From assembly GCA_965219995.1 (NCBI GenBank), contig CBDCOX010000002.1:2560001-2624000 (forward strand): 64,000 bases of DNA. The letters run 5' to 3'. The number at the start of each line of letters is the position of its first letter. Within the stretch, counting starts at the first letter, position 1. The position numbers and the translations under genes were made by a program. The DNA comes from Candidatus Latescibacterota bacterium (GTDB lineage Bacteria > Latescibacterota > UBA2968 > GCA-2709665). The notes under the pieces were generated by a model. It had not been told where the DNA came from. It worked only from the letters and a program-made list of their open reading frames with translations, and made no database searches. Of the stretch, positions 60,426 through 63,982 are shown piece by piece.

Positions 60426-61253
60426 TCAGGCGGGCTCCTGTTCATCGGGCGTTTCGACCGGCTTCGCTTCGCGCTGCGCCATTTGATTGAACCACCACAG
60501 ACCGGCCACGGCCAGGACGATGCCACTCACAAACAACCACCAGGGAAGAAACTCTACAACCTGCCAATCCTCGATAGGTCGGAATAATTCCATACGCACC
60601 GTAATCAACGACAGAAAATTGTTCAGCGCGTGACCGAACAACGCGGGCAGCAAGGAACCTGTATGTACGACCCACCACGCAAATGCGAGACCCAGTGTCA
60701 GAGATCCCGGAAATTGCCAGGGATTCATATGGAGCGCGGCAAACAGAAACGCGGACCACAGAATGGCACGCCGCCGGGTACCGTGGGCTAACAGCCCGCC
60801 CAGAATAACACCTCTGCAGAGGACCTCCTCGGTAAGAGGCGCTTGAATCGCCAGAACATAAAACGCAAGACCAAATGGTGTTTTGCTGCCCATTATATCA
60901 AGGAACATGTCGAGAAATTCTTTGGGGACTGGAATCAGATACTGCACGAAGCTTGCAAGGTTGGACAAGAAAATGCCCAATCCCACGATCGAGACGGAAA
61001 CGGGTAAGTACAACTTCCACGGAACTGGCTTGAAAAGCAGGACGTCGGACCACGGCCGACCGGACCGACGTTGCGCATATAGCACGATCAGACCAATAGC
61101 GGGCAGATTTACAATCAATACCAGGTAATCGAAGATCCGTGTCGCATTGCCCGACGCGACGCCGAGGAAATGAAGCGCCAACCCCAATGCGTTCATTGCT
61201 ACCAAAAGCAGGACCATCAACCAGACGGATTGCTTCAGATTCGGATAAGCCAT
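60426..61253 (-). CDS. CPBP (CAAX/Abi) intramembrane metalloprotease, copy 2
   Basis: EEVLCRG, FAALH, HALNN motifs; multiple TM helices. Confidence 0.92.
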   Translation of the reverse strand: MAYPNLKQSVWLMVLLLVAMNALGLALHFLGVASGNATRIFDYLVLIVNLPAIGLIVLYAQRRSGRPWSDVLLFKPVPWKLYLPVSVSIVGLGIFLSNLASFVQYLIPVPKEFLDMFLDIMGSKTPFGLAFYVLAIQAPLTEEVLCRGVILGGLLAHGTRRRAILWSAFLFAALHMNPWQFPGSLTLGLAFAWWVVHTGSLLPALFGHALNNFLSLITVRMELFRPIEDWQVVEFLPWWLFVSGIVLAVAGLWWFNQMAQREAKPVETPDEQEPA

Positions 61254-61391
61254 CCTCTTCCTCGTTTCTTGTTGAACGGATGACAACACATCGAGCGGTC
61301 CGTTTTCCCTTAGAGTCGGGCGACGATGTGTGCCCTGTCTTCTTTGCTGACTCATACAACCTGCAGCGACTGATCTTCCCTTTGACGCCGG

Positions 61392-62231
61392 TTACAACGC
61401 AGCGCCATCAGACTCGTCGTCAACCGGTGTTTCCACTTGCGCCTCGTGGCCTTTCGCCATCCTGCAAAACCACGTCAATCCGATAACGGCCAGCGCGATC
61501 CCGCACAACTGCAGCCACCAGGGAAGATACACCAGAACATCCCAATTCTCCATGGGTCCGAACAATTCCAAACGAACTGACGTCAGCGACAGGAAATTGT
61601 TCAGCGCGTGTCCGACCAGTGCCGGTATCAGCGAACCGGTCTGGATCACCCACCAGGCGAAAACCAACCCCAATATAAGCGCGACAGGGAATTGCCACGC
61701 GTTTGCATGGAACAGCGCAAACAGGACCGCCGACCAGACAATGGCCCTGTTTCGCGTTCGGTGGGCCAGCAACCCCCCGAGGATGACCCCTCTGAAAAAA
61801 ACTTCCTCCGCGAGCGGCGCCTTAACTACCATCACAAAAAAGGCAAATGGATAGGGAGTTTCCTTCCCTGCCAGATCCCCGATTAGATTCAGCAATATTT
61901 CCGGCACCGGGATCAGCTGCCGCATCAGAGTTCCAAGGTCCGTGCAGACGATCGCCAATCCGACAACCGACACGACGAGCGGAAGGTACAGCATCCGGGA
62001 AACTGGTTTGAGGAGCAGAATCTCGTCCCAGTTCCGATCGGTTCGTCGGTGTGCGTAGATCACGGTCAAAACGAAGCTTGCCAAACTCAGGATCCACATT
62101 AGATATGGACTCTGTTGTAACGGCACGTCGAGGATAAATTCCAGTATCGCAACAGGTACACCAAGTGCCATGCCAATAAGCAAGAGCAATATCAGTAGCC
62201 ATACGGATTGCTTCAGGTTCGGATACGCCAT
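61392..62231 (-). CDS. CPBP (CAAX/Abi) intramembrane metalloprotease, copy 1
   Basis: EEVFFRG, FALFH, HALNN motifs; RBS GAGGAGG. Confidence 0.92.
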   Translation of the reverse strand: MAYPNLKQSVWLLILLLLIGMALGVPVAILEFILDVPLQQSPYLMWILSLASFVLTVIYAHRRTDRNWDEILLLKPVSRMLYLPLVVSVVGLAIVCTDLGTLMRQLIPVPEILLNLIGDLAGKETPYPFAFFVMVVKAPLAEEVFFRGVILGGLLAHRTRNRAIVWSAVLFALFHANAWQFPVALILGLVFAWWVIQTGSLIPALVGHALNNFLSLTSVRLELFGPMENWDVLVYLPWWLQLCGIALAVIGLTWFCRMAKGHEAQVETPVDDESDGAAL

Positions 62232-62273
62232 TGATTCCCTCCTCGTTCGAACATCATCTGCCGGCAGGTTCAT

Positions 62274-62402
62274 TTATCCGGATGCCGCAGCGGCCGCGGA
62301 AGAATCTTCGTTTTCCACTAAATCCAGGTTCGCGCGCCCGAATCGAGCGGCGGGCTTCTCGAGTTCATCATTCCGGAAAATCCCTTGCAGGGAACGGGTC
62401 AT
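62274..62402 (-). CDS. Small 42-aa ORF, candidate peptide precursor
   Basis: MTRSLQGIFRNDELEKPAARFGRANLDLVENEDSSAAAAASG; AGAGGAG just before the ATG (short spacing); sigma54 motif upstream. Confidence 0.45.
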   Translation of the reverse strand: MTRSLQGIFRNDELEKPAARFGRANLDLVENEDSSAAAAASG

Positions 62403-62438
62403 GTCTCCTCTTGCGATCGTGAACAACCCGAATCGACG

Positions 62439-62454
62439 TGCAAGAAACAGGCCA
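62439..62454 (-). promoter_or_regulatory. Sigma54 (-24/-12) promoter
   Basis: Minus strand TGGCCTGTTTCTTGCA: GG-N10-GC with TGGC and TTGCA flanks. Confidence 0.65.
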
Positions 62455-62646
62455 GACTTGAGATAAATGGCAATGTATCGTCTATACATCATTTAATTGA
62501 AGGATTCCGGATCGAAGGAGCCCGGCTGTGTCGCAAAAAGCGCCTGACCGCGGTGACGGGTATTCCAGTACGCGCGCACGGAGGGACATAGGCTGCGGTC
62601 CGTGAAGAGATTTGGTGGGCAGTCGAGGGGGCGTACGAAAAAGCGG

Positions 62647-62676
62647 TGCATTCTGCAGCGCCGGATGCATTCTGCA
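62647..62676. promoter_or_regulatory. Tandem palindromic sites, candidate upstream activator sequence
   Basis: TGCATTCTGCA twice (62647-62657, 62666-62676), about 200 bp upstream of the sigma54 motif. Confidence 0.5.
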
Positions 62677-62731
62677 ACGATCGGCGCCGGCCGGAAACCG
62701 CGCGGAAGCGCACGGATCGGCGAGCGGGCAT

Positions 62732-62946
62732 AAAAAAATCCCGTTCCATCCCCTCGCGATTCAGCAATGAACTTTCCGGCGGCACCCCGATTAAAGGGTG
62801 CCGGGCAGTGTCACCACTCACGCAGCTTTGAGGATGCGGGAAGGTCCTGCGTATTCGCCGGGAACGTGGGAGCTACCCATGCCCCTTTGAGTCGGCTGTT
62901 GTATTCGGCAGGCTACCCGACATACGGGTACTGCCCGAGTGGTGAC
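62732..62946 (-). ncRNA. Candidate structured ncRNA / attenuator (family not recognised)
   Basis: Perfect 11-bp inverted repeat (62937-62947 / 62809-62819) enclosing three hairpins, then an 8-bp hairpin and a U7 tract; promoter directly upstream. Confidence 0.6.
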
Positions 62947-62952
62947 AACCGG

Positions 62953-62981
62953 AATATAGATTCCGAGACCGGGAATGACAA
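62953..62981 (-). promoter_or_regulatory. Sigma70-type promoter for the candidate ncRNA
   Basis: Minus strand TTGTCA-17 nt-TATATT; predicted start about 62946. Confidence 0.65.
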
Positions 62982-63169
62982 GGGTTAATTTGCGACTCTC
63001 AAAAAGGGAAATCGCGGAGCCGTCCGAACGCGTGCATCACCAGGGCCGAAAACCGCATTGACGACGGGCTGCAGATGAATTTCTTGCCCGGAAACGGAAG
63101 TCGCACAGCGAGAGGTTGACCGTCGCCGTTGGCGAATGGAACCGCGACGCGCCTCCTCTTCGCCTGACA

Positions 63170-63982
63170 TCACGTGTCCGGCATCCGCGACGCCAGCACT
63201 GGATAGCGTATATCCGCCCTCTGTAACTCCCGCTGCAGCCACTGGCTGAACAATGTGTCGCGAATCTCATTGACGACACGATCGTCCAGCGTTGCCGGAT
63301 AGCGCCGCTGCAGCAAATACAGCGCGAAACCGCCCGGCGCCTTTTCAGGACCGAAGATCTCGCCCGGTTCAGCAGCGAAGAGTCGCGCGGCAATACCCTT
63401 CGGCAACTGCTCCCGTCGCAACCGCCCCATAAACCCGCCGGCCGGCCGCGTGCGCTCATCCTGTGAGAACTCGCGCGCCATTGCGCAGAAATCCGCGCCG
63501 TCCTCTCTCGTATGCAGTCCGATTTCGTCTATTACGCCTCGATCCCGGTGGTGAATCCAGCAGACTTCCGCCTCGTCGAAATCCAGCGTGTGCTGTGCGA
63601 AGTACGGTTCGATCCGTCCCTCCGAGACTTTTTCGGACATCATGCGCTCCGATCGCCTCGCGTGGGCGTCTTCCGCAACGTCGCCGAGCGTAATTCCTCC
63701 GGACCGGAGCCAGGCTTCCGTATCTTCCACGCTTTCAAGGCGGTGTCGATACCGCCAGTCGTCGACGTCGCTCTGGATGTCTTCGGGCTTCGGGTGGATG
63801 CCCTCCCTCTCCGCGAGTTGCCGCACGAGTTCTCTTCGAGCGTACTCGCCGAAGAACCCGAGCTTGTCTGCAACGCCCAGATGTCGTACAACCTGCGTCA
63901 GGGACACGTCGATGCCATTGACCCGAACCAGCGATACAGCCCTGGCCGCGTTTGCGGAGTCGTGTTCCTCCGGACGGCGCAT
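63170..63982 (-). CDS. PpiC/parvulin-type peptidyl-prolyl isomerase-like protein (type linked to peptide/T1SS export clusters)
   Basis: Helical N-domain (DWRYRHRLESVEDTEAWL), FCAMAREFSQD...GGFMG...FAAEPGEIFGP rotamase core, IRDTLFSQWL end. The ATG overlaps the TGA of a frame entering from outside the window. Confidence 0.8.
   Translation of the reverse strand: MRRPEEHDSANAARAVSLVRVNGIDVSLTQVVRHLGVADKLGFFGEYARRELVRQLAEREGIHPKPEDIQSDVDDWRYRHRLESVEDTEAWLRSGGITLGDVAEDAHARRSERMMSEKVSEGRIEPYFAQHTLDFDEAEVCWIHHRDRGVIDEIGLHTREDGADFCAMAREFSQDERTRPAGGFMGRLRREQLPKGIAARLFAAEPGEIFGPEKAPGGFALYLLQRRYPATLDDRVVNEIRDTLFSQWLQRELQRADIRYPVLASRMPDT

Follow-up and report, generated by a model that had tools for sequence, protein, structure and literature searches.

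A divergent, extended relative of sRNA-Xcc1 in Latescibacterota is predicted to form a bistable leader ahead of CPBP protease genes

sRNA-Xcc1 was first described in Xanthomonas campestris as an 88-nt RNA on Northern blots (PMC2996969), is located upstream of symE in Xanthomonas integron cassettes, where it is oriented against the cassette promoter (bioRxiv 10.1101/2025.06.18.660453), and precedes an ORF6N gene in APSE phages (bioRxiv 10.1101/2020.03.17.996009); neither an extended fold nor a switch is described in these passages of the three reports. Rfam has long listed sRNA-Xcc1 as a trans-acting small RNA (sRNA) of unexplained mechanism. In phages P1 and P7, C4 is a structured RNA at the 5' end of its transcript, with segments complementary to sites of the same transcript that lie over a ribosome-binding site and at upstream positions, and it is freed from its precursor by RNase P. 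The CI RNA of phage P4 is a similar system. In Bartonella, the RNAs Brt1-9 (194-203 nt) have their own promoters, and each stops a short distance before a gene that is poorly transcribed (Tu et al. 2016, PMC5387305); they are reported as genus-specific, abundant terminated transcripts that precede one gene family (helix-turn-helix regulators), and it is proposed that they function as terminator/antiterminator switches and also act in trans. Here, we analysed a stretch of 64,000 nt (the window) from a Candidatus Latescibacterota genome (assembly GCA_965219995.1, contig CBDCOX010000002.1), which carries a predicted structured RNA of 215 nt on the minus strand, running from 62946 to 62732. We put the probability that this RNA is a bistable, self-masking leader or attenuator at about 0.5. 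It is a relative of sRNA-Xcc1 and, by analogy, would work like phage C4 without being a member of that family, and like the model proposed for the Brt RNAs. In this genome it is an RNA gene that probably serves as an attenuator ahead of two CPBP protease genes.

The sole Rfam match of the window RNA was sRNA-Xcc1 (RF02221), at 28 bits compared to a gathering cut-off of 53 (E 0.068 in 4 kb), and a genome-wide search with this model (5.4 Mb, E 0.02) returned the window RNA as its only match. At an E-value of up to 1, sRNA-Xcc1 was also the only family that recurred among the window, 20 loci from Latescibacterota and 16 loci from Alphaproteobacteria; single weak matches to His_leader, EF3314_EF3315 and sR42 were located elsewhere in the loci and were dismissed as noise. 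The cmscan alignment is in register and displays the layout of the family, in which P1 encloses the P2-P3 arm and the same words occur in the same order: P1 GUCGGG.../...CCCGGC, P2, the AAUACAA loop, P3, the GAAUA loop, a hairpin, and then ...CACCC. The window RNA differs from sRNA-Xcc1 by its length, which is about twice the 88 nt of the latter (about 147 nt for the core including an additional closing helix, P0, and 215 nt up to a tract of seven U residues, U7, both with predicted ends). It further differs by the 11 bp of P0, which interleaves with P1, by a 25-nt insertion in P3, and by an expression platform of about 70 nt ending in U7. In addition, it resides at a syntenic chromosomal locus in Latescibacterota (13 of 13 loci of the genus) and not in an integron cassette, transposon, plasmid or phage, although attC sites were not searched for. 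While sRNA-Xcc1 is filed as a trans-acting sRNA, the window RNA better fits a cis-acting switch. We regard it as an extended, divergent, sub-threshold relative of sRNA-Xcc1 and not as a member by the Rfam threshold. An earlier reading of the window by a model, made from the sequence alone (hereafter the sequence-only reading), had been unable to place the RNA in any known family. It had foreseen that an Rfam match would lower the novelty, which the sub-threshold match to sRNA-Xcc1 does.

The two families can be linked because intermediate forms and a member from Escherichia coli bridge them. A 23-letter core motif, searched in one genome per species, occurred in at least 114 stretches from Latescibacterota and Alphaproteobacteria, the listed alphaproteobacterial carriers being Acetobacteraceae, Sphingomonadales, Caulobacterales, Kaistia and others. 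The 16 alphaproteobacterial loci were chosen by this motif, so that model scores obtained on them are not independent of it. Twelve of them gave sub-threshold sRNA-Xcc1 matches (best 44.3 bits). The scores of these loci were 34-61 bits with R1, a covariance model built from an alignment of 44 relatives of the window RNA (A1); short forms from Alphaproteobacteria reached 44 bits with RF02221 and 50 bits with R1. From one short form, a weak BLAST match led to an unannotated element of E. coli, which turned out to be a bona fide sRNA-Xcc1 (62.9 bits) and to which R1 aligns in register, at 11.5 bits only. Weak BLAST matches to the same core were obtained for 170 of 5426 complete genomes of E. coli. 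The E. coli sRNA-Xcc1 (L187:1501-1590, NZ_CP027390.1) lies directly upstream of a gene annotated as 'phage antirepressor Ant', beside an integrase gene.

The window RNA is preceded by a sigma-70-type promoter, TTGTCA-17-TATATT, which spans 62953-62981 on the minus strand and had already been proposed in the sequence-only reading. A promoter scan of both strands from 62300 to 63300 returned it as the sole promoter-like site (0.4 expected), and thus no other such site was found between the RNA and 62300. Its position predicts that transcription starts at 62946, which is the first base of GUCACCACUC and the 5' end of P0. This start has comparative support because the promoter register recurs across the family: among 38 family representatives (clusters at 85% identity), 25 carried a promoter with at least 8 of 12 matches and a -10 hexamer ending 6-7 nt ahead of the closing stem, compared to 6.3% of shuffled upstream regions. 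The RNA from this start to U7 folds at -90.2 kcal/mol and was more stable than each of 200 dinucleotide shuffles (mean -75.2 kcal/mol, z -3.0).

The secondary structure was judged by covariation on A1, which revealed compensatory changes in all five helices, P0 to P4 (Table 1). The closing stem that the sequence-only reading had pointed out, GUCACCACUC (62937-62946) with GAGUGGUGAC (62810-62819) on the minus strand, was borne out, with a double change at every pair. The long-range helix P1 (GUCGGGUAG/CUGCCCGGC) was paired in 99.2% of cells, and one of its pairs occurs as AU in 35, GC in 5 and GU in 4 sequences. In 119 distinct copies from two phyla, its strands were complementary at 9/9 positions in 92, 8/9 in 24 and 7/9 in 3 cases, with a mean of 7.7 for shuffled sequences. 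P2 (CCUGC/GCAGG) was 99.1% paired, one pair being AU in 18, GC in 15 and GU in 11 sequences; P3 was 97.7% paired with covariation at three of four pairs, and its inner helix 80.4% paired with double changes at six of eight. The conserved internal-loop word GAAUACAA belongs to the motif that is also found in Alphaproteobacteria. Along the RNA, the strands follow in the order P0-5', P1-5', P0-3', P1-3'; since P1 and P0 interleave in this way, they would form either a pseudoknot or alternative structures.

All words quoted in the sequence-only reading were found where it had placed them, and its middle arm, GCCG..GGGCAUGGG/CCCACGUUC..CGGC, is present and covaries. The hairpin CGGCACCC (62796-62803)/GGGUGCCG (62780-62787) was likewise recovered. 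Two of its other pairings, the outer part of the first arm (GGCAG/CUGCC) and the third arm (ACGCAG/CUGCGU), were rejected because 20 of 43 cells were unpaired at the central pair of the former and 28 of 43 at one pair of the latter; CCUGC/GCAGG, CGCA/UGCG and GUCGGGUAG/CUGCCCGGC fit better. The inner part of the first arm, UACCCG/CGGGUA, appeared in the fold in which the loop-tail pairing described below was enforced, and its pairs were kept in 75-98% of the family with little covariation. Both GAAUAC and CUCAAAG are present in two copies, as that reading had noted, and GAAUA is invariant across the family. The repetition of CUCAAAG is probably due to chance, since its first copy is not conserved even within the genus. 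A pairing UGUCGGG/CCCGCA returned by RNAalifold was not adopted, since all its columns hardly vary and it would be in competition with P1 and P4, which have better support.

The 3' half of the RNA may adopt a different structure. Folded alone (CCUUCCCGC to U7), it forms one long rod of -48.5 kcal/mol that is directly followed by U7. In this rod, the segment CCUUCCCGCAUCCUC, which we refer to as the masking segment, pairs with the tail GAGGGGAUGGAACGGGA. The P0 3' strand has its partner in GUUCAUUGCUGA, which repeats the P0 5' strand in degenerate form further downstream, and the tip is made up by the CGGCACCC/GGGUGCCG hairpin. The sequence-only reading had already recognised that the loop UUCCCGCAUCCUC (62830-62842) is largely complementary to this tail directly ahead of U7. 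The same rod was predicted for 13 of 13 orthologs of the genus (-47.8 to -54.2 kcal/mol) even though the linker differs between them, with the apical hairpin at its tip in every case. For the full-length RNA, the minimum-energy fold is closed by P0 (-93.3 kcal/mol), compared to -89.2 kcal/mol when the loop-tail pairing was enforced. The rod requires the P0 3' strand, the P1 3' strand (as 5' half of the apical hairpin) and the P4 5' strand, and the Xcc1-type core and the terminator are therefore mutually exclusive.

These findings suggest a switch between two states. In fold A, the ends of the RNA would close the 11-bp P0, which is followed by the sRNA-Xcc1-type core of P1 (GUCGGGUAG/CUGCCCGGC), P2, P3 and the hairpin P4. 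In fold B, the 3' half would refold into the rod that ends at U7 and acts as an intrinsic terminator; in this model, the terminator is a long-range rod instead of a compact hairpin. Because part of P0 and part of P1 are also required for the rod, formation of the core would block termination, and formation of the rod would release the 215-nt RNA. We infer both termination at U7 and which of the two folds is the default. The idea of a switchable leader, raised in the sequence-only reading, is thus well supported by exclusive folds about 4 kcal/mol apart, by the rod kept in 13 of 13 orthologs and by the masking of start sites in paralogs. A reading frame with its start in the tail (MERDFF...) loses its similarity among close orthologs after a few residues, and its Shine-Dalgarno sequence abuts the AUG; from this comparison, we treat it as non-coding.

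Across the family, the masking segment and the P0 3' strand pair better with the region downstream of their own RNA than with those of others. Among the 38 representatives, the predicted duplex of the masking segment reached -16.6 kcal/mol with its own and -14.9 kcal/mol with other downstream regions, and that of the P0 3' strand -9.3 and -7.7 kcal/mol; none of 5000 permutations gave a value as low in either case. The P4 loop alone did not act as such a 'barcode' in the same set (own versus other downstream regions, p = 0.12). The best target of the masking segment was located at most 12 nt from a start codon with a Shine-Dalgarno sequence ahead of it in 17 of the 38, where the invariant GCAU was often paired to AUGC, and a T-rich tract followed the target in 7 of the 38. 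In paralogs elsewhere in the phylum, as well as in the E. coli sRNA-Xcc1, the rod would thus bury the Shine-Dalgarno sequence and the start codon of the next gene instead of terminating transcription. In the E. coli RNA, the loop CTTTGAAG exactly complements the 8-nt CTTCAAAG, which abuts the Shine-Dalgarno sequence of the antirepressor gene; here, too, the P1 3' strand overlaps the apical hairpin and the 3' half folds as a rod. By eye, the tail of the window RNA resembles a decayed ribosome-binding site and start codon, similar to the start region following one paralog (L031) with the AUG lost.

Within the genus, the element is located ahead of CPBP (Rce1-like) protease genes and would probably attenuate transcription into them; the order of a PpiC-type peptidyl-prolyl isomerase (PPIase) gene, the RNA and a CPBP gene on the same strand was found at 13 of 13 loci, and the CPBP genes are therefore candidates for the regulated genes. 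The RNA occurs as a single copy in its own 5.4-Mb genome, as determined by BLAST and by R1, and a reading as a repeat or miniature inverted-repeat transposable element (MITE) of this genome was dropped. A comparison by DNA similarity with 61 related genomes revealed relatives in 32, among them all 14 remaining ones of the genus; across the genus, the RNA and its promoter are 85-97% identical. Of 151 genomes sampled from the phylum, 64 gave matches to R1, and a single genome contained as many as 14 copies.

Table 1 Features of the predicted RNA and its promoter in the window. Covariation refers to alignment A1; numbers of invariant columns follow the first sequence of that alignment.
Feature	Position	Strand	Basis or remark
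-35 hexamer TTGTCA	62976..62981	-	promoter scan, 10/12 matches together with -10
-10 hexamer TATATT	62953..62958	-	promoter scan and family register
P0 5' strand GUCACCACUCG, closing stem	62936..62946	-	11 pairs, 98.6% of cells paired, double changes at 11/11
UACCCG, 5' linker	62925..62930	-	predicted to pair with CGGGUA (62914-62919) in the terminator state only
P1 5' strand GUCGGGUAG	62913..62921	-	corresponds to P1 of sRNA-Xcc1; crosses P0
P2 5' strand CCUGC	62908..62912	-	partner GCAGG at 62846-62850, covarying
Invariant internal-loop word GAAUACAA	62899..62906	-	columns A42, A43, T44, A45, A47, A48 invariant in 44 sequences
P3 (GCCG/CGGC) and inner hairpin GGGGCAUGGG-UAGCU-CCCACGUUCC	62857..62896	-	covariation
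Second conserved loop word GAAUAC	62851..62856	-	columns A92, A93, A95 invariant
P2 3' strand GCAGG	62846..62850	-	covariation
Masking segment CCUUCCCGCAUCCUC ('anti-TIR')	62830..62844	-	holds P4 5' strand CGCA (62835-62838)
P4 3' strand UGCG	62821..62824	-	97.1% paired, one GC-for-AU double change
P0 3' strand UGAGUGGUGAC	62810..62820	-	partner either P0 5' strand or downstream mimic
P1 3' strand CUGCCCGGC	62800..62808	-	overlaps 5' half of apical hairpin
Apical hairpin CGGCACCC-UUUAAUCG-GGGUGCCG	62780..62803	-	87.7% paired, double changes at 3 pairs
Degenerate copy of P0 5' strand, GUUCAUUGCUGA	62761..62772	-	predicted partner of P0 3' strand in the rod
Tail GAGGGGAUGGAACGGGA	62739..62755	-	complementary to masking segment; abuts U7
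U7 tract, predicted 3' end of terminated RNA	62732..62738	-	sequence; rod ends there in orthologs

Several observations weigh against a self-masking leader. A simple terminator scan called no compact hairpin before U7, and it is uncommon for a terminator stem to enclose about 70 nt. P0, with its 11 pairs free of mismatches, is also made earlier in transcription than its competitor, which makes it difficult to see how the rod could win. The downstream copy of the P0 5' strand is not a universal feature when compared without gaps (mean identity 6.47 versus 6.31 of 10 in the control, at least 8/10 in 5 of 38 representatives), and it is significant in the gapped duplex test only. The masking segment closes the fold with at least six closing pairs and z < -2 in 33 of 38 3' halves, whose end points were picked by the best duplex, a choice that itself favours closing pairs. 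The expression data consist of assembled contigs of RNA libraries, which show neither ends, strand nor true transcription and may stem from DNA carry-over. One library (X20) contains the core of a relative (62787-62939, 14 differences) and another (X19) covers 62780-62883. Those of a third library (X18), from a sample whose DNA run contains a close relative of the whole stretch, cover 62506-62692, beyond U7, and 62917-63067, across the promoter, but not the body of the RNA, where 62780-62894 is missing. None of the contigs covers 62693-62779, that is, the tail, U7 and the stretch just below, uncovered parts in such contigs carrying no meaning of their own. Taken together, the contigs fit read-through or DNA carry-over as well as a discrete 215-nt RNA, and the promoter-crossing contig counts, if anything, against a clean stand-alone transcript. 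Among the orthologs, the CPBP start lies between about 145 and 600 nt from the RNA, and no conserved reading frame follows the RNA 3' among those of the genus; for these two reasons a stand-alone RNA gene stays viable. Such a stable, trans-acting 215-nt sRNA, a form of the stand-alone sRNA also raised in the sequence-only reading, would pair through an exposed CCUUCCC/CCUC segment with ribosome-binding sites of mRNAs elsewhere, and the CPBP genes would be unrelated to it. It fits the high identity of the RNA and its promoter within the genus while spacer length and the following frames vary, and, as compared by eye, the downstream frame of the paralogs seems decayed at this locus. Its described relative is an 88-nt RNA on Northern blots (PMC2996969), and the Brt RNAs, which are similar in size, occur as abundant terminated transcripts with a proposed action in trans as well (PMC5387305). 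However, the 15-nt masking segment had 29 complementary sites with up to two mismatches in its own genome, compared to 13 for a reversed control, and of the 11 sites examined none was located at a convincing start, all being inside longer open frames; near-perfect complements thus offered no convincing trans target in this genome. The best complement of the masking segment is the tail of the RNA itself, and termination at U7 would have to pass through the rod fold, so that the architecture of a switch is needed anyway. We consider a stand-alone sRNA somewhat unlikely.

The leader reading shares its architecture with two further explanations, in which the same parts would serve other ends. Like transcription-terminating riboswitches, the RNA has a multi-helix sensor-like domain that shares bases with a terminator; it differs from them in that a rod of about 110 nt takes the place of a compact terminator hairpin, and in that the genes downstream form no coherent set. 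If it were a ligand-sensing riboswitch, its invariant junction nucleotides would bind a small molecule or ion, stabilise P1/P0 and prevent the rod. The unpaired GAAUA.AA, GAAUA and GUCGGGU are indeed invariant between covarying helices in 44 sequences, the motif is present in two phyla, and P1 has bases in common with the apical hairpin of the platform, an overlap known from classical riboswitches, so that in the model the platform excludes the closing helix of the sensor. Several copies per genome precede genes for secreted and surface-type proteins. Such an arrangement recalls second-messenger riboswitches. However, among 42 downstream open reading frames (ORFs) of the family, 30 have no Pfam family, and the remainder include CPBP protease, DUF1232, outer-membrane beta-barrel, WD40, leucine-rich repeat (LRR) and ankyrin proteins, a dockerin-bearing protein, an IS1595-type transposase zinc ribbon and an FkbM methyltransferase. 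Because these genes share no pathway, they suggest no ligand, which also counts against the leader reading; the phage and antirepressor context of the bona fide sRNA-Xcc1 fits an antisense mechanism that works without ligand. A riboswitch in the strict sense is therefore improbable in our view. An immunity RNA of the C4/CI type, processed from a leader and repressing start regions on incoming or sister copies of a mobile element in trans, is still harder to credit. The order annotated in phage P1 (promoter, upstream targets a1/b1, c4, downstream targets a2/b2, then icd-ant) parallels the arrangement in the window, and the bona fide sRNA-Xcc1 of E. coli lies upstream of an antirepressor gene next to an integrase gene. 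The masking segment and the start regions (AUGCGG...) are alike between paralogs, which would permit cross-talk, and one relative holds four identical copies in a repeat of at least 730 nt. On the other hand, the Rfam C4 model (RF01695) matched nothing in the genome of the window at E <= 10, nor did it match any of 37 loci searched at E <= 1, and R1 did not recognise the annotated c4 gene of phage P1; homology was thus detected in neither direction. The genome holds a single copy at a chromosomal locus that is kept in 13 of 13 cases and is no phage immunity region; the four neighbouring genes that were checked include neither a phage gene nor one for an integrase. The predicted start coincides with the 5' end of P0, so that 5' processing is not needed. 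Of the comparison to C4 and CI drawn in the sequence-only reading, what stands is an analogy of mechanism: a loop complementary to the downstream ribosome-binding region of its own transcript, seen in 17 of 38 representatives, with the tail before U7 as the target in the window. The likeness to the Brt RNAs is drawn from their published description; unlike these, the RNA stands ahead of varied genes across its family.

We consider it rather doubtful that the sRNA-Xcc1 core serves as sensor in a riboswitch-like class not described before, which would respond to a small molecule, an ion, a second messenger or a dedicated protein. If it were, this class would span at least Latescibacterota and Pseudomonadota (Alpha- and Gammaproteobacteria), stabilisation of P0/P1 would switch on accessory genes for CPBP proteases, surface or secreted proteins and prophage antirepressors, and the 'orphan sRNA' Xcc1 would have been misfiled since 2010. 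The locus and its relatives suggest that the Xcc1 core may be the front end of a much larger cis-acting module, in which a dedicated promoter is combined with two interleaved closing helices and with a rod that would terminate transcription or hide the next start site. The module is common in this uncultured phylum, and current family models at curated thresholds miss it. Its recognition would annotate hundreds of 'empty' intergenic regions and offer a model that could be tested on the Xcc1-type RNAs of plant pathogens and of E. coli prophages. The 12 best literature matches for riboswitches or RNA motifs of Latescibacter included none that named the taxon.

Downstream of the RNA, a tandem pair of CPBP (Rce1-like) intramembrane protease paralogs is encoded at 60426-62273 on the minus strand. 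The gene that comes next, for a DegT-family aminotransferase, has a one-base overlap with the stop of the second CPBP gene. The spacer between the RNA and these genes contains, at 62600-62650 on the minus strand, two copies of TGCAGAATGCA, 19 nt apart, after GGCGCC-N5-TTGCA. A sigma-54 promoter was rejected for this motif, as its GG-to-GC spacing is one base too long and it is present in some orthologs only: a similar sigma-54-like motif was found in 6 of 13 distinct sequences of the genus, the window included, all of them with a spacer of 546-693 nt, and four other long spacers are without it. The motif could be an operator or an inserted element.

Elsewhere in the family, one RNA paralog (L030:827-1423, minus strand) is located ahead of an IS1595-type transposase gene (zinc-ribbon domain, E 2e-8), in line with an association of sRNA-Xcc1 with transposases that has been reported. 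The four identical copies mentioned above (L049-L052, genome G040) lie in a repeat, identical over at least 730 nt, that also includes the last part of an upstream gene together with its terminator, as well as the beginning of a gene for a secreted protein; this repeat is probably a multi-copy mobile or duplicated element. Four loci that the genome search placed in the genus of the window (L060, L073, L078 and L132) are labelled 'Gemmatimonadota bacterium' and the others 'Candidatus Latescibacterota', which is probably a discrepancy of taxonomic labelling.

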